This document shows positions 1 through 29,184 of a DNA stretch of 32,378 nt, piece after piece. Within the stretch, counting starts at the first letter, position 1. Every line of letters starts with the position of its first letter. The DNA comes from Klebsormidium nitens. Its lineage: Eukaryota; Plantae; Klebsormidiophyceae. A program made the position numbers and the translations under genes. The stretch spans positions 14,637 to 47,014 of the forward strand of contig DF237661.1 of the NCBI GenBank assembly GCA_000708835.1, given 5' to 3'. The notes below the pieces were generated by a model. That model did not search any database and had not been told where the DNA came from. It saw only the letters and a program-made list of their open reading frames with translations.

Positions 1-3000
1 TTATCCACCAATCACCAGCGCTGGTCAGTTCCTGGTCAGTCACAGAGGAAAGCTGACAGCTACGACGAGATTGTGGAAGGTCGCCTTCACGTTCTGTGGA
101 TCTTTGGAAGAAACATAAAGGGACAGTCGGTTGCTGTCAAAGCTCCTTGTCCAGCATTTCTGTATGTTGATGCTCCAAAGAACTGGTCTCAGAAAGAGGA
201 GAAGATAGTGGGGCAAGAGCTGTACAGGTGTGTCGCACATGAGTACCCTGGCAGCCTCCTCAGCTGCACACACGTGAGACGCAAGCGGTTTTTTGGCTAC
301 CAAGGAGACCAGGACTTTGACTTCTACAAACTCACCTTTGTCTCGACTGACGCGTTGAGGATGTGCTCCAACGTGCTGAGGAAGCGCGCCCTCAACTTCA
401 AAACCAAGGGCATCACCCACACTTTCACGGTGTACGAGTCGAACGTGGACCCAATCATCCGGTTCCTCCACGAACACGGGCTCGAGTCGTCGGGATGGAT
501 GAGGGCTGTCGGTGTTGAACCTGTTGACAAGTCCAAGAAGGAGACCACGTGCGCCCTCGAGTACCATTGCAGCAGTGGCGACCAGATCACTCCACACTCT
601 ACCAATAACGTGGCCCCATTTGTTCAGGTGGGTACTGTTGGACTCTCAAATGATCNNNNNNNNNNNNNNNNNNNNNNNNNNNNNNNNNNNNNNNNNNNNN
701 NNNNNNNNNNNNNNNNNNNNNNNNNNNNNNNNNNNNNNNNNNNNNNNNNNNNNNNNNNNNNNNNNNNNNNNNNNNNNNNNNNNNNNNNNNNNNNNNNNNN
801 NNNNNNNNNNNNNNNNNNNNNNNNNNNNNNNNNNNNNNNNNNNNNNNNNNNNNNNNNNNNNNNNNNNNNNNNNNNNNNNNNNNNNNNNNNNNNNNNNNNN
901 NNNNNNNNNNNNNNNNNNNNNNNNNNNNNNNNNNNNNNNNNNNNNNNNNNNNNNNNNNNNNNNNNNNNNNNNNNNNNNNNNNNNNNNNNNNNNNNNNNNN
1001 NNNNNNNNNNNNNNNNNNNNNNNNNNNNNNNNNNNNNNNNNNNNNNNNNNNNNNNNNNNNNNNNNNNNNNNNNNNNNNNNNNNNNNNNNNNNNNNNNNNN
1101 NNNNNNNNNNNNNNNNNNNNNNNNNNNNNNNNNNNNNNNNNNNNNNNNNNNNNNNNNNNNNNNNNNNNNNNNNNNNNNNNNNNNNNNNNNNNNNNNNNNN
1201 NNNNNNNNNNNNNNNNNNNNNNNNNNNNNNNNNNNNNNNNNNNNNNNNNNNNNNNNNNNNNNNNNNNNNNNNNNNNNNNNNNNNNNNNNNNNNNNNNNNN
1301 NNNNNNNNNNNNNNNNNNNNNNNNNNNNNNNNGCTAACAAAATCTCTGCTACCACTAAGTAATGGTTGGGCCTCTGACCTCAATCCTAGACAGCCCCAAT
1401 GGCTGCTTCATCCGCTGGATGCTGACAGCCGCTTGCACGTTCATCACGTCCATCTTCATCTGGCTGTCTTACCGGGGCATGCAACAGATATCTGACAGGG
1501 GCGGCGTACGCCTGACCAGTACAGAAAAGTCAACAAGAAACTTCCTCTTCTTACTCTTGTTTGCTCTAGCCGCATACCTGTTCTTCTCGATGTACAAGGC
1601 TGTAGACTGCTACCTCTGATTGCAGGTCAGCTTCGACATCGAGTGCGCTTCGGCTGACGATGGCTTCCCGGACGCCCTCCGAGAAGGCTGCGAGGTCATC
1701 CAGATTGGATCTACCGTTCAGATCCTCGGCCAGCCCGAGCCCGTCCTCAAGCACATCGTCACTTTGAAGGAGTGTCGGCCGATCCTGGGCGTTGAGGTGG
1801 AGAGCTTTGACACGGAGCGGGAGGTCCTCGAAGCCTTCATCAGGCTCTTGCGCAGGGTAGACGCCGACATCCTGCTCGGCTGGAACACCTTCCAGTTCGA
1901 CATGGACTACATCTTCAAGCGGGCCGCGAGGTGCAAGATCAGGCCGTTGATACTTGGAAAGCTCGTGGCCGAGGAGAGTACCTCCAAAGAGATGACCCTC
2001 CAGTCTGCAGCATTTGGGAGCAACGCATACAACCTGGTGACGACGCCCGGGGTCCTCCACCTGGACATCATGGAGGCTGTCAAGCGCGAGCACAAGGTGA
2101 GCTACCATTCTGGACAATCCTTTGACCTTTGCCTGAGTGAAGAGGCAGGACACGAGGACAAAGAAGCCACATGACGTCACTTCTTCCATTGCAGCTTCCC
2201 AGCTACAGCCTGAAGGAGGTCTCCAAGACGATGCTGCCTGAGTCGGGCGCAAGCAACCAGAAGGTCGACCTACCCCCAAAGGAGATCTTCCGGCTCTTTC
2301 GGGAAGGCAGCTCTGCAGGCATCACTCAGATCGCAGAGTACTGCGTGCAAGACACCGCGCTACCCCTGAAGATTGCAAACAAGCTCTGCACGGTGGGGAA
2401 CGCCATCGAGATGGCCAAGTGCAGCTGCGTCCCGGTCGACTACCTGCTCAAACGGGGCATGCAGATCAAGGTCTTCTCCCTCATCCTAAAGTACACCATG
2501 GCGCTCGGCTACGTCATCCCTGTGATGCCACGAGAGAACGGTGCTAAGAGGTCAGCAGGTGACAAGAGCGACAAGTACGAGGGGGCCACCGTTTTGGACG
2601 CGAAGACCGACGTGTATATGCGGTGCATCGTCACGCTCGACTTTGCCTCCCTTTACCCCAGGTGAGAAATGCTGCAAAGCAACTGAAGGCTTGTTTGAGG
2701 CATCTGTTGGATCCATTCAAAAACCGCATGATACTGTAAACAACGGTGAGCTTCCGCATATACACGGATGGAGACGAACTTTGAAAAGTATTTCAAAATT
2801 CGGGACCCCTTCTTTTTTGCTATAGGAGGGGGGTATGAAACGCCTGCTCATCCGCGCATCTGCGCGAGCCTCAGGCCGTGTGTATTTCAGATACATGCAA
2901 CTTGCAATTACTCGTGCAGCATCATCCGCGCCCACAACATGTCGTACGACACCCTCGTCATGGACCCCCGGTACCTCAACATCCCAGGAGTGGAGTATGC

Positions 3001-5497
3001 CAAGTTCGAATGGCAGGAACCTTCGGGGCCGAAGACAGCGTACTTTGTGCAGAGCCGTGAGGGAGTGCTTTCAAAGCTCCTGAGCGACTTGGCCGTGTGG
3101 CGGAAGGACGCCAAAGGGGTCATGGCTGCCGCTGAAAGGCAGGGGGACAGGGCTCTCGAGGCGATCATGAACGGGTGAGTCCTTGCCAAAGTTGTTCAGA
3201 ATTACTGCGCTCTCCTCTGCCATATCTTGCAGCATGTTCCTGCATGGCAACGCGATGATCCAAACCACAAATTTCTTCTTTTGCTCAATGGCAGGAAACA
3301 GCTGGCCTACAAGATCATGATGAACTCGGTGTACGGGTTCTGTGGCGCGACGAGGGGCATGCTACCATGCGTAGAGATTGCTGCAGCCGTCACGTCCACG
3401 GGCCGGCACATGATCGATCACTCCAAGCAGATGGTGGAGACGCGCTACCCGGGCAGCCAGGTCGTCTACGGAGTGAGCGTAAAAGAGGCACCTCCGGGAA
3501 TGTTCAGCTGTCTGGGATCTTGAAGGTTGAGTATGTGACATCCTGTCAACTTGACGGTCTATCAGCTGACGTTCTGTCATTTGAGATTGTCAACTGACAA
3601 TATCTTCTGTTTCCAGGATACGGACTCCATCTTCGTGTCCTTCAAGGACGACCTGCGCGACATGCACGAGGCGTTCAGGCTGGGGAACGAGGCCTCGGAG
3701 CTCATCACGAAGACGTTCAAGCGGCCGAACAAGCTGGAATTCGAAAAGGTCTACTGCCCGCTGCTGCTGATTGGGAAGAAGAGGTACTCTCAATCACTTT
3801 CTCGTCTTCCGTGTCTTTGTGCTCGTTCTCTCCTTGCGAACGGACGACTTTCGGATGGCCTTCCCTTTATGCACGGCGCACTTGACGCTGCCTTCAATGG
3901 CCGTCAGCTTGCACCTCCTTGGTGGATCGGTGGCCTTGCTGCTGCTCACAAGGTGGTTGCACTGCCTTGGCATCTTCCGTGCAACCACCTTAGAAAGTTG
4001 CATCATGCTCTCGCACGAACAGGTACACGGGGCTCAAGTACGAGAAGGACCCGACCAAGCCCAAGGGAATCGACACAAAGGGCCTGCAGCTGGTGAGACG
4101 AGACAGCGTGCCCCTTGTCCGGGAGGTTTCGAACGCGATCCTCGACTCCATCCTGTACAAGTGGGACGTCATGGGCGCCCGCGTCCAGGCTCGCAAGGTG
4201 GTCAAGGACCTCCTCGAGGGCAGGATCCCGATCGAGAAGCTGACGCTGACGAAAGCGCTCAGGACTGGCTACAAGAACCTCGACCTACCCCACCTGGCGG
4301 TGGCGCGCAAGCTGGAGATGCGGGACCCTGGCTCCGGGCCAAAGCCTGGTGACAGAGTCCCGTACGTTCTGATCGACACGGGGAACTCTAAGGACAAGCA
4401 ATCTGAGAAGGCTGAAGACCCGGCCTACGCTGTCAGGATGGGGCTACCCTTGGACTTTGAATACTACATGGTAAGGGGTCAGGTTTACACTGCACTGATT
4501 ACGCTAGTTTCCACCTCAGCGCACCCCTTGTTCCCTTCTTTGTTGCATAGTGATGCTTCTCCCAGAACCGCCCGCCAGGGGACTGCCATCTAGCACCAGA
4601 AAACGCATAGGGATGCTGACCACGGACCGCGGTCAAGTAGTTGGGGAACTTTGCTGGCCGCTTGGGTCGCTTTTGGCCTTTAACCAGCTTCCAAACACCG
4701 GTCTTTGGGTTCTGTGCATAACGTCTCCCACCTGCACTAGTCCCAGCTGCTACGTTCAGACGTGCTAGAAGCTCTTGCTGTCTCTTGGATGGCACCCGTG
4801 CCTTTGCCGGTCGGCTCCTTGATGGTTCGCCAGAGGCCAGCCTCCACCTCAGCGCACCCTTTGCACCTGTTCTTGTTGGATAGTGATGCTTCTGGTATGC
4901 CCTGCCACCGGGCGACTGCCAAGTGGCTCCAGAGAACGCATAGGGATACTGTCCCCGAACCTGGGTCAAGTAGCCAGGGAACTTTGATGTTCTCTTGGTG
5001 GCAGTGCGTGCGGTGACAGGCACGACAATCGCGGGGGTGACATGGACCGCAGTGGGGACTCGGTTTGCAGAGCCGTGCTTGCCTGTCAAGTATATCGCCT
5101 CTGATGTGCGTTTCCACTTCAGACCACTCTTCCCTTTTACCGCAATCACGTAGAAAGGGTCACCGTGCTTGTCCGTTCCCCGACGCACCTCGTTGAAAAA
5201 CTGGGGACGTGGCAGAGTCATTGTTCCAGATAACCTAGACAAAGAAAGAAATCCCGGCACCCCTCGCAGGAGCACCAGTTGAAGACGCCCCTCGTGACCC
5301 TCCTGGGACTCTTTGTCAAGAGCGGCAACCCGGCCGAGCAGCTGTACGGGGACCTGATGCGGGCCTTCAAGAATGGGAAGAAGAAGCAGAGGATGATCGA
5401 TTCAATGTTTAAAAAGCAGGCGCCTGCCCCGAACGCGGCCTCCAAGTGGAAGGAGATGCTACAGGCCAACAATGAGCACCTAGGTAGAGGAACATAG
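1..5497 (+). CDS. polB: Family B DNA polymerase, 8 exons, 5' end uncertain or outside window
   Basis: Exons <=73-627, 1626-2096, 2195-2661, 2920-3174, 3295-3472, 3617-3783, 4023-4470, 5270-5497. Splicing restores VAPFVQ|VSFDIEC (ExoI), REHK|LPSYSL, DFASLYPS|IIRAHN (region II), NG|KQLAYKIMMNSVYG (region III), YG|DTDS (region I), KKR|YTGLKY..KGLQLVRRD and EYYM|EHQLKTPL. About 920 aa counting from position 73. Confidence 0.96.
628..1625 (+). other. polB intron 1 (GT-AG, phase 0); contains an N gap and a nested sense ORF
   Basis: cag|GTGGGT ... ctgatTGCAG|gtc; the join gives APFVQVSFDIEC. Confidence 0.88.
1362..1619 (+). CDS. 85-aa two-TM membrane protein nested in polB intron 1
   Basis: ATG-initiated ORF with two hydrophobic helices (WMLTAACTFITSIFIWLSY; FLFLLLFALAAYLFFSMY). 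The stop lies 6 nt before the acceptor. Confidence 0.65.
   Translation: MVGPLTSILDSPNGCFIRWMLTAACTFITSIFIWLSYRGMQQISDRGGVRLTSTEKSTRNFLFLLLFALAAYLFFSMYKAVDCYL
2097..2194 (+). other. polB intron 2 (98 nt, phase 0)
   Basis: aag|GTGAGC ... cttccattGCAG|ctt; restores EHKLPSYSL. Confidence 0.92.
2662..2919 (+). other. polB intron 3 (258 nt, phase 2)
   Basis: cccag|GTGAGA ... cgtGCAG|c; restores SLYPSIIRAHN. Confidence 0.93.
3175..3294 (+). other. polB intron 4 (120 nt, phase 2)
   Basis: aacgg|GTGAGT ... tttcttcttttgctcaatgGCAG|g; restores NGKQLAYK. Confidence 0.9.
3473..3616 (+). other. polB intron 5 (144 nt, phase 0), splits the catalytic YGDTDS motif
   Basis: gga|GTGAGC ... ctgac..tcttctgtttcCAG|gat. 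Confidence 0.95.
3784..4022 (+). other. polB intron 6 (239 nt, phase 2) with nested antisense ORF
   Basis: aagag|GTACTC ... gaaCAG|gtac; restores KKRYTGLKYEKDP. Confidence 0.92.
3794..4006 (-). CDS. 70-aa basic C3H zinc-finger-like microprotein nested antisense in polB intron 6
   Basis: QC-x15-C-x9-C-x2-H (QCNHLVSSSKATDPPRRCKLTAIEGSVKCAVH) followed by a K/R-rich tail. The ORF fills 213 of 239 intron nt. Confidence 0.55.
   Translation of the reverse strand: MMQLSKVVARKMPRQCNHLVSSSKATDPPRRCKLTAIEGSVKCAVHKGKAIRKSSVRKERTSTKTRKTRK
4471..5269 (+). other. polB intron 7 (799 nt, phase 0) with nested antisense gene
   Basis: atg|GTAAGG ... ccctcGCAG|gag; restores FEYYMEHQLKTPL. Confidence 0.92.
4499..5221 (-). 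CDS. 240-aa basic, internally repeated protein nested antisense in polB intron 7
   Basis: Starts MTLPRPQ. Two ~50-aa repeats (KFPxYLTxVRGQxPYAFSGAxWQSPGGR...GALRWxLA) with much third-position divergence. TGTAA lies 9 nt after the stop. Confidence 0.85.
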   Translation of the reverse strand: MTLPRPQFFNEVRRGTDKHGDPFYVIAVKGKSGLKWKRTSEAIYLTGKHGSANRVPTAVHVTPAIVVPVTARTATKRTSKFPGYLTQVRGQYPYAFSGATWQSPGGRAYQKHHYPTRTGAKGALRWRLASGEPSRSRPAKARVPSKRQQELLARLNVAAGTSAGGRRYAQNPKTGVWKLVKGQKRPKRPAKFPNYLTAVRGQHPYAFSGARWQSPGGRFWEKHHYATKKGTRGALRWKLA

Positions 5498-19496: not shown

Positions 19497-20822
19497 TTAG
19501 ACCACATGCTTCCATGCTCGGCCCCTCTCAATCCTCGTAAGGAGCTGTCTACTAACACTGTACTTCTCCGCGCGCTTCTTCTGAGAAAGTCCGTCGGTTC
19601 CACGCGTGAGGCGGATCTCCCTGACTTCATCTTCTGTTAGCTTCAGTGGCCTGCCTCGGTGTCTCACAGTGTCGATGTTGTTCTCACTGTTTGTACCTGG
19701 CACTAGATGATCTGGGGCGCAACATGCCCTATTGTCGCAAAGATGGCGCACGATCTGATCCTTCTTCAGAGGTTCCCCGAGCTTGATCTCGCAAGCGAGG
19801 ATGTGGGAAAGCATCTTCTTGCCGTGTATGGACATCTGGCCGTATCCACAGAGTAATGATCCAGTCCAGAACTGGCACGGAGTGTCCACGAAAGGACTAG
19901 CCGCTGGTGTCACTGTCAGCTTCTTCTTGAGGCGTCGGAGCGCTTCCTCGTACATCCCACTCGTCCAAGTGCGCTCATTCGCTCGAACCCTTCTCAAGCG
20001 CTCCATCTCGCGCTTTCCCTCTCTACTATCCCCAGATAGGTGAGCCCATGCGTGGCCTTTGTCGATACTTTGGACAATATGCAGCGATACTCCAAGCCGT
20101 TCGGCTCTCTGCTTCTGTGTCTCGTGCCCAACCTGCCCATATCTGGTGTTGGTCGGTTTTGAAGTCTTAATCTTCCGAGCGAGGTCCTCTGTGATCTTTG
20201 TGAAGTTACTAGCCGCACCTCTTCGCAGGGTACCGTTGGCAATCTTGTCTTGAAAATTATTCTCGGACTGTGTGCCATACGCCAAGTGGGTCGGCTCGAA
20301 ACAGCGCGGCTCGTTGCACAAGTGCCTGATGACCATCCTGACGCCGTTTGCGTTCTTCTCCGCAGGAGGCTCGCTCAGGTTGTGATGAAGCATGTATGCA
20401 GCCCGATGTATGCCCAGAGTGAGGTCTCCGAGCACTACTTTCTTGTAATCAGTATCGGCAAGCAGGCAGCCGTTCTCTTGGCGAGATCCAAATTTTTGAA
20501 GTCGGGCCCATGCGCGAGCAACGTCCAGGCCCTTCTTTCTTGGTACTTTCTGGAAGTGCTCGACATTCATGCATAATTTGTTGCCACAGGTACGCAAACA
20601 CTCATGCGTAACATCAAGGGGGTCATTGGGATAATGTAGATCCCAAAGAAAGCGGTGTGAGGCTAAATTCCTGCGTTCTTTGTTAAAAGTGACACAAACT
20701 CTGGGTGATCCGCCTTCACTCTGGCTCCTTACTTGACCTGTCCATAGTTGACAACCACGTGCGTCAGCTGGCGCTGTCTTTGCCCTGATTGCGAGCAGCA
20801 CAGCAGCATTCCAGTCGGCCAT
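19497..20822 (-). CDS. Free-standing HNH (His-Me finger, Zn-binding) homing endonuclease-like protein with three HNH modules and two HTH modules
   Basis: RHLCNEPRCFEPTHL..GTQSEN, RHLCDNRACCAPDHL..GTNSEN and a degenerate RTCGNKLCMNVEHF. Two KxTED..R.I...A...VS....I..G.AW.H HTH repeats. Start MADWN. Confidence 0.88.
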   Translation of the reverse strand: MADWNAAVLLAIRAKTAPADARGCQLWTGQVRSQSEGGSPRVCVTFNKERRNLASHRFLWDLHYPNDPLDVTHECLRTCGNKLCMNVEHFQKVPRKKGLDVARAWARLQKFGSRQENGCLLADTDYKKVVLGDLTLGIHRAAYMLHHNLSEPPAEKNANGVRMVIRHLCNEPRCFEPTHLAYGTQSENNFQDKIANGTLRRGAASNFTKITEDLARKIKTSKPTNTRYGQVGHETQKQRAERLGVSLHIVQSIDKGHAWAHLSGDSREGKREMERLRRVRANERTWTSGMYEEALRRLKKKLTVTPAASPFVDTPCQFWTGSLLCGYGQMSIHGKKMLSHILACEIKLGEPLKKDQIVRHLCDNRACCAPDHLVPGTNSENNIDTVRHRGRPLKLTEDEVREIRLTRGTDGLSQKKRAEKYSVSRQLLTRIERGRAWKHVV

Positions 20823-20913: not shown

Positions 20914-23120
20914 CTACGGACCATGTGGGAAGCATCTTGCGTACTCCTGTGCAACTACCTCGTACAGCTCTGGTGGCAGGCCTTCTTGAGGTGCCTCTTG
21001 CCCCTCATCCTCGCCAAGCAAGTCTACGCCGAAAATCCAGCAGCGCTTCTTGAGCCGCAGCCCGCTGTCACGGGGGTATGGCGGATCAATGGCCTCTCTG
21101 CCTGCTCTGAAGAACAGCAGGAGCCCCATCTCAGCCCAAATGCCGTTTTGCGCCAGNNNNNNNNNNNNNNNNNNNNNNNNNNNNNNNNNNNNNNNNNNNN
21201 NNNNNNNNNNNNNNNNNNNNNNNNNNNNNNNNNNNNNNNNNNNNNNNNNNNNNNNNNNNNNNNNNNNNNNNNNNNNNNNNNNNNNNNNNNNNNNNNNNNN
21301 NNNNNNNNNNNNNNNNNNNNNNNNNNNNNNNNNNNNNNNNNNNNNNNNNNNNNNNNNNNNNNNNNNNNNNNNNNNNNNNNNNNNNNNNNNNNNNNNNNNN
21401 NNNNNNNNNNNNNNNNNNNNNNNNNNNNNNNNNNNNNNNNNNNNNNNTGCAGCCCGTCCAGCTCGCCGACGCTGTACAGCATGCGCCCGATGAAGGCATA
21501 CAGCCAGCGGCAAGCCTCCTCCGGGAGCCGCTGAGCCTCCAAAATCTGCTGCAGGTTCGGGGTCGGCAGCTGGTACCAGTCCAGGTCGCCATCCACGACG
21601 CGAAGCCGCGCAGCTTCGTCGAACGGGAGGTCAAAGTACTTGCTCGCGCACACCTCCGGCTTCAGGAGCTGGTCGACCCTGCCTCCCGCATACGGTATGA
21701 ACAGGTCCCTCACGTCCTCGCCCACCAGCAGGCCGCTGCCCGGCTTCAGGATGGAGTCCCTCAGCCAGGCAACGTACACCCCGTTCTTGAAGGCGAACAC
21801 GTGGCGGTCCTTGTGGATGACAGGGAAGCGCGGGTCGTTCCTGTTTGCAGCGATGTGGGCGGGGATGTCCGTCTGGAAGCTCCCGTTGGAGGTTAAGAGG
21901 CTGTACAGGCGCTCATCGGCATACACGTTGCAGGTGTCGAAGAGGGCCTGCTGGATGGTCGTCTCCACCTTGAAGGCGCGCGTGTTGTAGCCGTCGCTCT
22001 TGATCGCCGAGTAGCAGAGATCTTCGCAGCCCTTGACCTCCAGAGCGCGCAGGCCGTACCGCGCCGCCCTGTCATACCACGCGCTGATGAGCTCTGTCCT
22101 CGCGCAATCAGCCTCCTTTGGCTGGGTGGTTGGCGCCTCCGGGCCAGGCGGCGCAAACTGCAGCAGCCCGGCCTTGCCACGGCTGATTGCCGACCTCACC
22201 GCCTCCAGCCGCCTGACGACGTTGTCATGGTCTGTGGGTGGGAGATGTCCGTCCTTGAAGGCTCCGTTCAGGCCCTGTGCGATGCTCGCAAACTCTGCCC
22301 AACACCGGCGCGAGGCTGCCTCGATGCGGGTGGCGTCAAAGTCGGTCTCCGCATCAAAGTAGCTGCACATGCTCGAGAGGGCAGCAGCCGGAGACACGGG
22401 CCTGCCGACGTTCCATTTCCTCTCGAGTGCCTCCAGAGCTTCCAGCAGAGAGGCCGAGCCCTGCGCTGGGCCATGTGATTGGCTGTGCACCAGGCTGCGC
22501 TCCGGGCTGCGCTCCCCGCTGCTCTCTGGGCCCCCAGGGCTGGAGGGAAACGTCCGGGGTGGGGTGCCGTAGACATCTTCTGCGTCCTCCGCAAAAAGCC
22601 GTCTCCTCACACCAACCCGATCCGACTCAGAGTCAGACTCCTGAAGACCGAAAGAAAGTGTCAGAGATCCTCTGGAATGTCCGCTGCAGCAAGCCTTCCT
22701 TCAGGTCCACCACAACAAGAGACGCATGCGGTGGGTCTATCCAAAGAGGCACTCCAGAGAGCGCCATGCTGAAAAGGCAGGCAGAGTGACATGCTGGCGT
22801 CATAGCTAATGAAAGACAACCAAAACTTTGCTCACAATGATGCGCCTGCCCCGCTTCCTGCGAAGCAGCGCTGGTAGCATGGGCCCATCGTCGTCCTCCT
22901 CCACCGAGCGCTCCCTGTCAAAGGCAGCGTACATGGCCATCCCATCTTCTGGCGTCCCTTCACCCTCCGAAATGAAGCCATCCAAGGAGCCCGGGGTGTC
23001 GCTGCCGTCATCAGACCTGGGCCCGTACAGCTCTCCCTCAATGTCCTCGCCATTGCGCTCTTCCAGCTGCTCGTTTTGAATCTCAGCCTGGTCAAAGAGA
23101 TGCGCCTCTGAGTCCTCCAT
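20914..23120 (-). CDS. D5-like primase-helicase; at least 2 exons; the helicase core is in or lost at the gap
   Basis: Exon 23120-22836 (acidic) splices to 22640 onward (RRII|ESDSESDRVGVRRR). D5_N motif RHVFAFKNGVY; WLYAFIGRMLYSVGELDG; C-terminal YPRDSG..WIFGVDL after the gap. Confidence 0.82.
22641..22835 (-). other. D5 gene intron (195 nt, phase 0)
   Basis: att|GTGAGC ... CTGACactttctttcggtcttCAG|gag; branch point, pyrimidine tract and frame all fit. Confidence 0.85.
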
Positions 23121-23335: not shown

Positions 23336-25515
23336 ATGGACACCGTCAAGAGATGGGCGTACAAGAAGGGGTTCATGCTGAAAAAGGGCTCAACTGGAGA
23401 GACGCACCTTCTGTTCAACAAGGGTCGCCTGCAGATCCTCAGGGACGCAGAAGCAGCCTTCCTGGAGACCTATGCCAAGTGGATTGAGGATGGGCGGGAC
23501 CTGTTTGTGATTGAGCAGAGGACCTCCCCAACCTTTCGCATGTTTGTGGACTTGGACTATGAGACAAAGAAAGAGGTGTCAAAAGATGAGCTGAAGACCG
23601 TCTGCCAGTGTATCCAGCGCACGGTGCTTGAGCAGGTTGGAGAACATGCTGCCAGGTGTGTAGTGAGCTGCGCAGACAAACCAAAGGCCACAAAGGACGG
23701 GCTTCTCAAGACCGGAGTGCATCTGGTGTGGCCAGACATCCAAGTTGACTCTGAAAACGCCCTCCGGCTGCGCACCTGGGTCCTGGCAGGCCTGCATGAG
23801 ACCTTTGGTCAGAATGACTGGCCCAAGATGGTGGACATCTCTGTCTACACCAGGGCCGGCCTGCGCCTCAATGGCTCAATCAAGCGGGCTGAGTGCACAT
23901 GCAGAGGGCGGGATGATGCTTGCAACAGGTGCCAGGGGAAAGGAGAGGTCTTTGACAGGAGAAAGTATGCCCCGCTGGTGTGCTATGCCGGACCAAGCGA
24001 GAGCCCTGAGCTGCTGGAGCTGTGCATGTCATCCATCAGCGCCCGGGTACGACCCTTACTGCACCTGGGTTAACAAAAGATCAGCGGGGAGCCGTTTCTC
24101 GGTCAAGCTTTCCCATCTCTTCTTCCTATTGTTCACCTCCAAGCCTTCTTTCTCGCTACAATGTCACTCCAGTCAGGGTAGCCTTCTTCAACTGTGATCA
24201 AAAGATGGGGAAGGGTCTCATCAGAGGGGTAAAGCTTGATATCCACGCGCCTCTCTACAAACCTGTAGAATACTCGCGCCTCGTCATATGTGCCCTTGAC
24301 TCTTCTCTGCAGAGTCGGGAAGTGCTGTAGAAAGTCTTGCACCTCCAACGCAATCCAGTGTCTGCTGATCCGCTCGCCTGACTTTGCTGTGTACTGAAAC
24401 CCACTGTTGACCAATTTGAGCCACAGCCAGGTTGCATCATAATCCTCTATCCTCATTACAGTGGCCCTGTAAGGGCTGGACAGGTGCTCATACCTAAAGT
24501 ATCTCTTGGAGCTGACTTTCAGCATGTCTTTCAGGGTGAAATTTTCCCCTTGCCATGTATTAGTGTTCAGGAAGGCCCCTATCACCCCATCCAGGATTTT
24601 GAAAAGCTCAAGTCGAGCGAGCCTGTCCTCAACCCCGTGCTTTATGTTGTCTGTTAGCGCATCACGAGTACAGCTGTCCATCTTTGGCTGGCTTCTTGCA
24701 AGGGAAATAGAAAAAGCTGAACCAATCGACAGAGTGGAAGATATGTCGTTCGTAGCTTGTTGAGCTGGACAATTGCTTCGAGCTTTCAATAATCCAAGCA
24801 AGAGCTGCGGTCCTGAACACACACTTCTTCTGCAGGTGAGGTTGACGTCCATTAGGGTCCCCTTTGGCGAGGAGCGCGAATCAACCCACATACCACAATG
24901 CGAAAGCATGCTCGAGCTTGAGCCTGAGCTTCAGGAGAGGTGTCACCAGGGGAAGGGGTCCCGCCTGGAGGCCGACAACACTCTGATGGGGCTGCTGACA
25001 AGGGAGCTCGGAGAAGCCTTCCCAAGCTGCTTCAAGGATGGCGAGGAGCTCTCTGACATTGTTCAGATGTCCGGCGACGATGGCAACCCCTACTTCCTGG
25101 TTCACACCAATTCCTGCTTCTGCCACAACCTGGGGCGATGCCACAACTCCAACCGCGTGTACTTTTACATTGACTCACAAAGGCTCCTCCAAAAGTGCTT
25201 CTGCACGTGCAACACGACCGAGGGCAGGAAGATGGGCTTGTGCTCTCAGTACAGCAGCGCACCTCATCCGGTCAGCACGGAGCTGAGGCGAGCCCTGTAT
25301 CCCGGCATTGACGACCTACTCATCGACCTGGACAGATTGACACGGAGCTGCAGCCTCGCGTGCAGCACATCTTGCAGAACACAAGCACCCTGGAGTCGCT
25401 GGACCAGCTCAAGGCCAGTGACCCATTGGAGTCACTCGCAACCGAGGCTCTGCTGGCGAGCGTGGGCTGGCAGAGGTGTGCAAATTCGTTTTGGTTGGTT
25501 ATTGCAAGGGCATGA
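23336..25515 (+). CDS. Archaeo-eukaryotic primase (PBCV-1 A468R-like) with C-terminal Zn-binding domain; one intron and an apparent frameshift
   Basis: FRMFVDLDY, KTGVHLVWP, D.SVY..GLRLNGS and FCHNLGRCHNSNRVYF..QKCFC. Exons 23336-24046 and 24836 onward; frame change near 25335. Confidence 0.85.
24047..24835 (+). other. Primase intron (789 nt, phase 0) with nested antisense gene
   Basis: cgg|GTACGA ... cttcttctGCAG|gtg; joins SSISAR|VRLTSIR. Confidence 0.8.
24133..24681 (-). CDS. 182-aa unknown protein nested antisense in the primase intron
   Basis: MDSCTRDAL...ARKKAWR; globular-looking composition; lies wholly inside the intron. Confidence 0.75.
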   Translation of the reverse strand: MDSCTRDALTDNIKHGVEDRLARLELFKILDGVIGAFLNTNTWQGENFTLKDMLKVSSKRYFRYEHLSSPYRATVMRIEDYDATWLWLKLVNSGFQYTAKSGERISRHWIALEVQDFLQHFPTLQRRVKGTYDEARVFYRFVERRVDIKLYPSDETLPHLLITVEEGYPDWSDIVARKKAWR

Positions 25516-26019
25516 ATGCAGAATCACTACCTCCTCTCCTTCATCCTGCATGTTGCACTCGTGCTCGGCTTCCTTGTGGCCTTCCGGAAGCTGGCCCCTC
25601 ACATCAACAACTCCTTGCAGGCCCGCACCGAAGGCACCAGCCGCGAGGCCATCAAAGCGACGCAGGCGCGCCCACCGTTAGCCCAGCGAGCATGCCATCC
25701 GGTTGCATTTGACAAGGCGGCCGATGCCATCCGAAAGTTTGAGCTGTGCGAGAGCAGCTTCTTGGAGGACAAAAGGCACAGGTCAAGGACATATCTGAAT
25801 GCTGTAGAACAGTCGAGCCGTTGCATGAAGCATCTGTACCGATTGAAACGAGCCATGCCAAACGATATGGCTGCAGAGAACAGGCTGGATTACTTTGTGG
25901 ACTACATTGAATCTACCATGACAGACAGCCTCCGTGCAATGGCGAGGCAGTCAAAGAGAGGAAAGGCACTCCATCACATGCCTCCCACCTTCCCACTTGC
26001 ATCAAATGTTCGCCAATGA
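25516..26019 (+). CDS. Hypothetical protein with N-terminal TM anchor
   Basis: 167 aa; its ATG directly follows the frame-corrected primase stop. Confidence 0.75.
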   Translation: MQNHYLLSFILHVALVLGFLVAFRKLAPHINNSLQARTEGTSREAIKATQARPPLAQRACHPVAFDKAADAIRKFELCESSFLEDKRHRSRTYLNAVEQSSRCMKHLYRLKRAMPNDMAAENRLDYFVDYIESTMTDSLRAMARQSKRGKALHHMPPTFPLASNVRQ

Positions 26020-27315: not shown

Positions 27316-29184
27316 TGTCGCTGGCCCGTCTCAGAAGGCCCTTGTCTCGGGCCCTCAACTGGCCAAAGCCGACGGTTCTCAGTATGCCTTCCGCGGTCAC
27401 AATGCTCAATCCTGAATGTCGCAAGAAGGTTGCAAGGCCGGCCTCTTCCTGCCGGTCTAAGAACCTTCTCAAGCAGTGCTCCAGGAACGCCAGCCGTTCC
27501 AAGCTGGCATCGCCGTGTCCTTCCAGCAGCAGCTGCGGCCTCAGGGAGGACTCTTGCTTCTGTTTCACGCTTATGAATGCTGCTTTATTTCGTGTAGACC
27601 CGCGGCCCAGACTGCGCGTGCCCGTGTCTTCGGACCGCTTACCAAGCCTCCTTGGCAAGGGCCTCTGGCTGATCACGGGCCTCGACAACGCCGAGGCGCA
27701 GCCTATGAGCCCCACGTAAGGCAGCAGGTCCCAATCCTGCCTCTGGAAAAGCCGTGCTTCGACCATGTCCGCAGCAGACAGAAGCTGTGCACCGTCAGGA
27801 GCTAGCTCCGGGGTGTCCAGGTAGTTTTCAAAGTAGGCAGATGTCGTTCCAAGGACGTCCTCGGAGGTCGCCTTAAAGAGCACGCCCGTGGAAACCGGCT
27901 TGTCAGGGTAGAGCAGGTGGCAGGCGCTCTCCAGCATAGACTCTGCCTTGTCCGTAGAGCCCTTCAGCCCGCTCTGCAGGACGTTCAGCATGGACCTGGC
28001 GTCTCCCTCCGCCGCACGGCAGGCCTCATCCACCTCTCTGTCCGATGCTACCAGGCCCTCCTGCGAGAGCACGTGCCTGGCCAGGAGCACTAGCTTGTCG
28101 TGGGGCAGCCTGCCAAAGCAGATCACCTCGCTGTCCCCTTCCAGATCGGCCATACGGCCCTTTGGCGTGTCGTTGGTTGTCNNNNNNNNNNNNNNNNNNN
28201 NNNNNNNNNNNNNNNNNNNNNNNNNNNNNNNNNNNNNNNNNNNNNNNNNNNNNNNNNNNNNNNNNNNNNNNNNNNNNNNNNNNNNNNNNNNNNNNNNNNN
28301 NNNNNNNNNNNNNNNNNNNNNNNNNNNNNNNNNNNNNNNNNNNNNNNNNNNNNNNNNNNNNNNNNNNNNNNNNNNNNNNNNNNNNNNNNNNNNNNNNNNN
28401 NNNNNNNNNNNNNNNNNNNNNNNNNNNNNNNNNNNNNNNNNNNNNNNNNNNNNNNNNNNNNNNNNNNNNNNNNNNNNNNNNNNNNNNNNNNNNNNNNNNN
28501 NNNNNNNNNNNNNNNNNNNNNNNNNNNNNNNNNNNNNNNNNNNNNNNNNNNNNNNNNNNNNNNNNNNNNNNNNNNNNNNNNNNNNNNNNNNNNNNNNNNN
28601 NNNNNNNNNNNNNNNNNNNNNNNNNNNNNNNNNNNNNNNNNNNNNNNNNNNNNNNNNNNNNNNNNNNNNNNNNNNNNNNNNNNNNNNNNNNNNNNNNNNN
28701 NNNNNNNNNNNNNNNNNNNNNNNNNNNNNNNNNNNNNNNNNNNNNNNNNNNNNNNNNNNNNNNNNNNNNNNNNNNNNNNNNNNNNNNNNNNNNNNNNNNN
28801 NNNNNNNNNNNNNNNNNNNNNNNNNNNNNNNNNNNNNNNNNNNNNNNNNNNNNNNNNNNNNNNNNNNNNNNNNNNNNNNNNNNNNNNNNNNNNNNNNNNN
28901 NNNNNNNNNNNNNNNNNNNNNNNNNNNNNNNNNNNNNNNNNNNNNNNNNNNNNNNNNNNNNNNNNNNNNNNNNNNGCGTTCTGCTCGACGACCTGACAAT
29001 CTGCTTCTCTAAGAGCCTGGTACGCTGCACACGTCTTCCCGGTCCCAGCAGGGCCTATGAGTAGGGCGGCCCGCTTCGTGCCGGGCTTGCGGTCCAGAAA
29101 ATCTCGCAGCCATTGCCTCAGGCGCTCGCGAGCCCCTTCGTTGCCGACAAGAAAGCTGCTGTACTTGGTTGACCACAAGGCCAT
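27311..29184 (-). CDS. Replication factor C large subunit; spans a gap
   Basis: LWSTKY, Walker A GPAGTGKT, VVEQN and AAEGDARSMLN. Confidence 0.88.

Follow-up and report, generated by a model that had tools for sequence, protein, structure and literature searches.

An antisense gene of an undescribed family inside a predicted spliceosomal intron of a nucleocytovirus primase in the Klebsormidium nitens assembly, probably a late passenger

The window, by which we mean the whole 32,378-nt stretch of DNA analysed here (Klebsormidium nitens assembly GCA_000708835.1, contig DF237661.1, positions 14,637 to 47,014), carries Pfam-recognised genes for PolB, an AEP primase, an mRNA capping enzyme, an RFC-like protein, a YqaJ nuclease, a P9 minor capsid protein, a DUF7197 protein and an HNH endonuclease, and is a nucleocytovirus region of this assembly. 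The region is likely an insert in the algal genome, and we grade it as endogenous no more firmly than that because no host-virus junction is visible within the window. In the available portions of two earlier studies, five or six diverged Phycodnaviridae-like core-gene sets are described from the Klebsormidium flaccidum/nitens assembly, with inserts favoured over contamination (PMC5294986), and giant-virus endogenisation in Klebsormidium is mentioned (PMC11244446). Five stretches of the window are runs of N. The RFC-like gene is broken by an N stretch of 794 nt (28182-28975), near in size to the primase intron. A 441-aa double HNH/His-Me endonuclease is encoded on the minus strand at 19497-20822, downstream of an ORF (21024-22370) that looks D5-like by eye, is partly N and has no Pfam match, and whose helicase end seems to be missing from the visible sequence.

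The primase gene is read from the plus strand. Its first exon (23336-24046, 237 codons) encodes an A468R/C962R-type AEP catalytic domain (Pfam AEP_C962R, E 7.6e-20) and is 100% identical to the first 237 aa of the public K. nitens gene model KFL_007120130. A predicted phase-0 GT-AG spliceosomal intron of 789 nt follows on the same strand (24047-24835). The second exon (24836-25303, plus strand) encodes a linker and a UL52-type zinc domain, which matches Pfam Herpes_UL52 below the curated cut-off (E 0.0037); this exon matches a profile of intact primases at E 8e-24 and is 49-55% identical to the relatives P0168 and P0169. The presence of an N-terminal AEP domain and a UL52-type zinc domain in one protein identifies an A468R/C962R-type AEP primase, where C962R is the name of the Pfam match and A468R that used in the original prediction. 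The C-terminal part of the gene (25304-25515, plus strand) is recognised by the C-termini of P0168 and P0169, which match another frame (E 4e-9 and 7e-4); the frame is broken between about 25303 and 25348, either by decay or by an assembly error. The public model departs from the primase at 25270 and joins the next ORF, 25516-26019 (window 25271-25521), a fusion that is probably an annotation error.

We then examined the limits of the intron. The donor (CGG/GTACGA, at 24047) is the sole phase-0 GT within 23990-24075. There are 11 in-frame AGs in 24764-24960, and the acceptor at 24835 (TTCTTCTGCAG/GTG) was chosen among them because homology picks it. The GT donor, the pyrimidine tract and the AG acceptor restore the host frame, as expected of U2-type signals, and the same two bases, 24046 and 24836, are joined in KFL_007120130. 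P0168 and P0169 (58% identical to exon 1), which are known as uninterrupted proteins and may stand for intronless genes or spliced models, align over this junction without a gap (SISAR/VRLTSIR here, TRVQ/IELTSIR and TFQQ/LLLTSIR in the relatives). Among the best 80 of 510 distant primase loci, both halves lie in one ORF at all 78 loci that have both, the other two having exon 1 only. This comparison with uninterrupted primases points away from separately transcribed halves and from a different junction, and coordinates, phase and homology agree with the original prediction that the primase is split by an intron at 24047-24835 with a 182-aa antisense ORF (24133-24681) inside. An Rfam scan of the intron found no group I/II core and only two chance-level matches to other families (E ≤ 5). 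Among 24 runs listed, there was no RNA run with this stretch, which counts neither for nor against splicing. Three nearer primases, P0007, P0008 and P0012 (66-68% identical), lose the match at the same residue and continue with Q-V-R or Q-V-S; since this is the reading of a CAG/GTRAG donor, we infer that they have an intron at the same site. A Q stands directly before the junction site in all five relatives, and in the window G/GT flanks both intron ends. In summary, the primase is, as judged from its sequence, split by a predicted phase-0 intron of the host type, which would be removed in the nucleus by the host spliceosome.

The polB gene of the window (1-5497) has seven GT-AG introns of 98-998 nt, and all eight exons are in frame after their removal; therefore, this virus uses host-type introns, and the splice signals of the primase intron resemble those of the seven in polB. 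Five of the polB introns are short, with no long ORF (98-258 nt). Intron 1 is largely N and has G/GT at both ends, as in the primase intron. Intron 7 (4471-5269) holds a basic antisense ORF of 240 aa with an internal repeat (4499-5221, minus strand), which almost fills it. This ORF has no significant Pfam or PHROG match and is unrelated to the nested primase gene. Nesting does reach beyond polB, as had been claimed, in that the primase intron and polB intron 7 each hold an antisense ORF. The further claim of a same architecture applies to the antisense ORF within an intron, but not to the margins, which are 86 and 154 nt in the primase intron versus 28 and 48 nt in polB intron 7. The primase intron is also less GC-rich than its exons (0.49 versus 0.57 and 0.58), as predicted. 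From this a separate origin had been proposed, which for the ORF is borne out by homology, but not by composition: GC by itself is not proof of a separate origin because the five short cargo-free polB introns are equally low (0.46-0.55), and the GC3 of the nested ORF (0.61) lies inside the range of 13 other ORFs (0.575-0.845).

The nested gene, P0001 (24133-24681, minus strand, 182 aa), was recognised as an ORF with profile homology to an undescribed family and lies wholly within the intron. Its frame is also open from an ATG at 24909 (258 aa); the start at 24681 is preferred because the relatives start at this Met, which is present in 93% of the rows having a residue there. A T-rich leader of about 40 nt, which the closest paralogues also have, lies upstream of the nested ATG (24682-24725, minus strand, limits approximate). 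The peptides upstream of P0003 and P0011 match the window solely in the stretch directly ahead of the ATG (in each case, 0 of 100 shuffles scored as high), and since the match ends there, the shared unit would consist of the ORF and the T-rich leader. By eye, the leader is also resembled by the loose end of the paralogue contig described below. The leader is thus likely the upstream edge of an inserted cassette. Without the cassette, about 195 nt of intron remain, which is within the range of the empty polB introns; no terminal repeats or target-site duplication were found at the cassette.

A BLAST search yielded five close relatives of P0001 (54-86% identity), and a profile search gathered 194 clusters at E ≤ 0.001 (111 at 1e-10, best 1e-62), so that the ORF is real far beyond chance. 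The exact sequence is absent from the protein collection searched, and P0001 therefore appears to be unannotated. The family, which occurs in giant viruses and algae, consists mostly of proteins of 150-260 aa that stand alone, and the named members among 29 proteins looked up are pmac_cds_108 of Pandoravirus macleodensis and GLI66397.1 of Volvox africanus. Two proteins without a Pfam match, P0063 and P0124, are fused family members; by eye, one follows a D5-type helicase-like end and the other a giant-virus-type N-terminal domain.

A cryptic PD-(D/E)xK or GIY-YIG fold had been suspected, and neither was found with structure prediction, Foldseek and VIA. The model of P0001 (pLDDT 91.9, pTM 0.84, from 122 sequences) has a long helix and two three-strand runs with short helices between them. 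Its only significant Foldseek matches are two uncharacterised P. macleodensis proteins, pmac_cds_108 (YP_009480792.1, A0A2U7UED2; E 3e-14, TM 0.77, 31% identity to P0001) and A0A2U7UGF9 (E 7e-8, TM 0.60). Among solved structures there was none at E ≤ 0.001 with Foldseek or at Z ≥ 5 with VIA, where the best scores were Z 3.9 (rmsd 7.3, 76 aligned) and Z 4.2 (rmsd 9.0, 116 aligned); for a predicted model, this does not prove a new fold. Nucleotidyltransferase-like rows recurred at Z ≤ 3.9 and were taken as a common arrangement, and the idea of a resemblance to T5orf172/GIY-YIG found no support. No GIY-YIG, PD-(D/E)xK, HNH or LAGLIDADG motif or Pfam family was found in 60 members (E ≤ 0.1), no PHROG match in eight of eight members, no PDB sequence match for P0001 (best E 0.4) and no usable match to it in the ESM Atlas. 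The conserved columns include D31, F37, T40, N41, H66, P70, Y71, K89, N92, G94, F95, R107, H108, W109, Y139, R145, D147, E165, G167 and P169, and the alignment suggests that H66, K89, N92, R107, H108, R145, D147 and E165 may form a site for ligand binding or catalysis that has nothing to do with intron mobility.

We next looked for a tie between this family and introns. The context was readable at three family loci, all of distant relatives, and none of the three gave a sign of nesting. At one (L119), the member stands free in a row of genes on one strand, with gaps of about 26 and 33 nt to either neighbour. At the second (L227), it stands free among viral genes, with no interrupted host gene; one neighbour was recognised by eye as ribonucleotide-reductase-like. 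At the third (L103, P. macleodensis), the member, pmac_cds_108, is itself interrupted by two introns and is flanked by two ORFs on the opposite strand, each with its own start and stop, so that nesting is not apparent there, though not strictly excluded. No locus of a close relative of either the nested gene or the primase was found in the viral, metagenome or genome contigs searched. Motif scans gave no family member among 22 loci in viral contigs and at least two true members among the 120 matches listed in genome contigs; L212, L220, L228, L104 and L105 were rejected as family loci, being motif-only or weak matches. No family match was found in the three virus records searched whole, nor in phage records. 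Two contigs in bacterial genome bins (L229, G004:C71; L230, G005:C544) look like eukaryotic-virus DNA and are probably mis-binned.

The nearest kin of the nested gene (three proteins) are 78-89% identical to it, versus 66-68% for the nearest primases found. In three of the four runs of one organism (organism A; X1, X4 and X8, from three studies and guessed to be RNA), contigs of 1,957-3,074 nt at a depth of 130-257 match the nested ORF only, at about 86% identity in two main pieces; run X6 had no match. The X4 contig extends about 1,060 nt before and 1,420 nt after the ORF with no match on the primase exons at 80% likeness, a threshold below which more diverged exons would escape. For polB, four runs gave only 20-30-nt pieces of another polymerase in three and none in X1. 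The paralogue in these contigs carries F95L at a conserved column, and may represent a viral gene that organism A has domesticated or that is still expressed there.

The copy in the window departs from its family. Of the 122 alignment rows, 10 lacked R107 or W109; among the other 112, P0001 is the only one with a single residue between these columns, where 98 have five, four residues being missing between R107/H108 and W109. Its N-terminus is 11 residues shorter than those of P0005, P0006 and P0010. In a quick tree of 61 rows chosen from the best matches, its end branch is 0.13 versus 0.017 for its sister, P0002. The frame is open, and 27 of the 30 columns conserved at ≥70% are kept. Compared with the paralogue, 14 of 25 differences fall at third positions and 8 of 19 codons differ synonymously versus 21% expected (P ~0.03; the test used 25 of the 40 differences). 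Differences leaning to the synonymous imply that selection acted on the P0001 lineage until recently, and the copy itself is likely decaying, which we attribute to a presumed relaxation of selection.

The closest known counterparts are, by analogy, the intron-harboured genes of mirusviruses, MING-1 in particular. In the accessible part of the source, more than 2,000 genes are reported inside mirusvirus spliceosomal introns, and MING-1 is described as a gene of about 190 aa that lacks a nuclease motif and occupies a long GT-AG intron within a core viral gene, being confined to the terminase (nuclease region) and without homologues outside Mirusviricota (PMC12768974). P0001 is likewise of similar size, lacks a nuclease motif and sits in a GT-AG intron of a core gene, and one MING-1 row in a table of that part is also on the opposite strand. 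However, its host is a nucleocytovirus AEP primase, not a mirusvirus terminase, and its family extends to Pandoravirus and Volvox and includes copies that stand free; P0001 is therefore not MING-1 as described, being set apart by host gene and distribution. As with shintrons, the GT-AG intron of a viral gene here carries another gene and lacks group I/II signatures, but no endonuclease family or fold was found for P0001, and by sequence this is not a shintron, allowing for a possible unlisted nuclease family. By layout, the polB intron-7 ORF is a better shintron-like candidate than P0001. The Phycodnaviridae-like inserts of Klebsormidium are similar in that the primase of the window is annotated in that assembly, on a contig dense in virus genes, whereas the portion of the report at hand mentions neither introns in these genes nor nested genes (PMC5294986). 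Punuivirus, a giant endogenous virus of Chlamydomonas, is also an endogenous algal nucleocytovirus with host-type GT-AG introns, of 176 bp on average according to part of the preprint (bioRxiv 10.64898/2026.10.09.758095), but no nested gene is mentioned in the 12 of 18 intron passages covered. The pair pmac_cds_108 and A0A2U7UGF9 shares the family and predicted fold of P0001, but pmac_cds_108 is uncharacterised, has its own two introns and gives no sign of nesting. The literature searches brought up no account of genes nested within the spliceosomal introns of nucleocytoviruses.

Taken together, we consider it reasonably probable that an accessory-gene cassette was copied into a pre-existing primase intron, is spliced out with it and is now decaying. 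An intron would have been gained at the CAG/GT site in the ancestor of this primase clade, and a small accessory virus gene with its own leader of about 40 bases would later have been copied into it in antisense, possibly through recombination between related viruses or between viral inserts that share one host genome. Splicing would conceal the insertion from the primase message, and selection on the copy could then relax, leading to decay. This order, intron first and cassette later, is suggested by the common break point of P0007, P0008 and P0012 and by the ordinary intron left without the cassette. A later arrival is also indicated by the closer kinship of the cargo (78-89% versus at most 68% for the primase), by the upstream likeness to P0003 and P0011 that is limited to the leader and by the paralogue contigs without a primase match; the family is not bound to introns at the readable loci, and the unique deletion between R107 and W109, the long end branch and the frame break in the host primase agree with decay. 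Against the passenger reading, a cargo closer than its host gene would also be an outcome of homing, the readable loci are distant ones only, the frame is open with its conserved columns, and neither target-site duplication nor terminal repeat marks the insertion.

Homing is rather unlikely, although it comes next. Here, as for MING-1, intron and gene would move or persist together at the CAG/GT site of the primase, P0001 being a nuclease or targeting factor of an undescribed fold. A core gene whose long GT-AG intron holds an antisense gene recalls mirusviruses, three relatives share the intron site whereas two lack it (or are known from models that splice it out), kinship is closer for the cargo than for the host gene, and H, R, D, E and N residues are conserved. 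The introns of P0007, P0008 and P0012 may carry the same gene as the primase intron here: a read-through of P0012 gave its best match at the expected place, a weak hint short of significance (22 of 200 shuffles did as well), and P0008 gave nothing (173 of 200). However, P0001 does not behave like the gene of a homing intron. None of the three readable relatives shows nesting, nothing on the paralogue contig before or after the ORF matches the primase, the gene does not fill its intron, and the 60 members lack any of the nuclease motifs or Pfam families looked for.

An insertion that itself made the intron is unlikely, too. In that case, an antisense cassette would have entered CAG/GT in the ancestor of the primase clade, been rescued by splicing and since been kept, replaced or lost, which would fit the Q before the site in all five relatives, the G/GT at both ends and a polB intron 7 that is almost wholly one antisense ORF. 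The cargo is, however, younger than the primase split would imply (89% versus 68%), some 195 nt of ordinary intron surround it, and this virus has at least five short introns without cargo. Less probable still is an arrival after integration, the cassette being copied from a transcribed paralogue of the host genome into an inert viral relic. Several diverged viral inserts are reported for the assembly in the portion cited (PMC5294986), the paralogue reaches its high depth in presumed RNA runs without a viral polB match, and the broken primase frame is consistent with a relic; yet elsewhere the family occurs in viral surroundings, a search for signs of a retrocopy or transposon found none, and the paralogue contig, at about 86% identity, is therefore not the direct donor. 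That there is no intron, the primase halves being separate genes with an unrelated gene between them, is barely credible: exon 2 has an in-frame ATG at 24908 and no spliced read was found, but all 78 relatives that have both halves encode them in a single ORF, the conserved LTSIR precedes that ATG, beginning two codons past the AG, and the frame is preserved over seven polB introns whose signals are the same.

If the passenger reading holds, accessory genes can land safely in long viral introns, and such a landing would be a plausible first step towards homing introns. It is quite doubtful that P0001 represents a new class of intron-mobility protein, folded unlike any solved structure and coming from a clade of the family that introns of Klebsormidium viruses recruited to home into core genes; if true, gene-carrying mobile spliceosomal introns would reach the Nucleocytoviricota, in a culturable streptophyte host. 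The locus has also brought to light a protein family of 194 clusters whose structure is predicted with confidence and for which no solved relative was found. The alga behind this assembly can be cultured, which puts splicing and expression within direct experimental reach.
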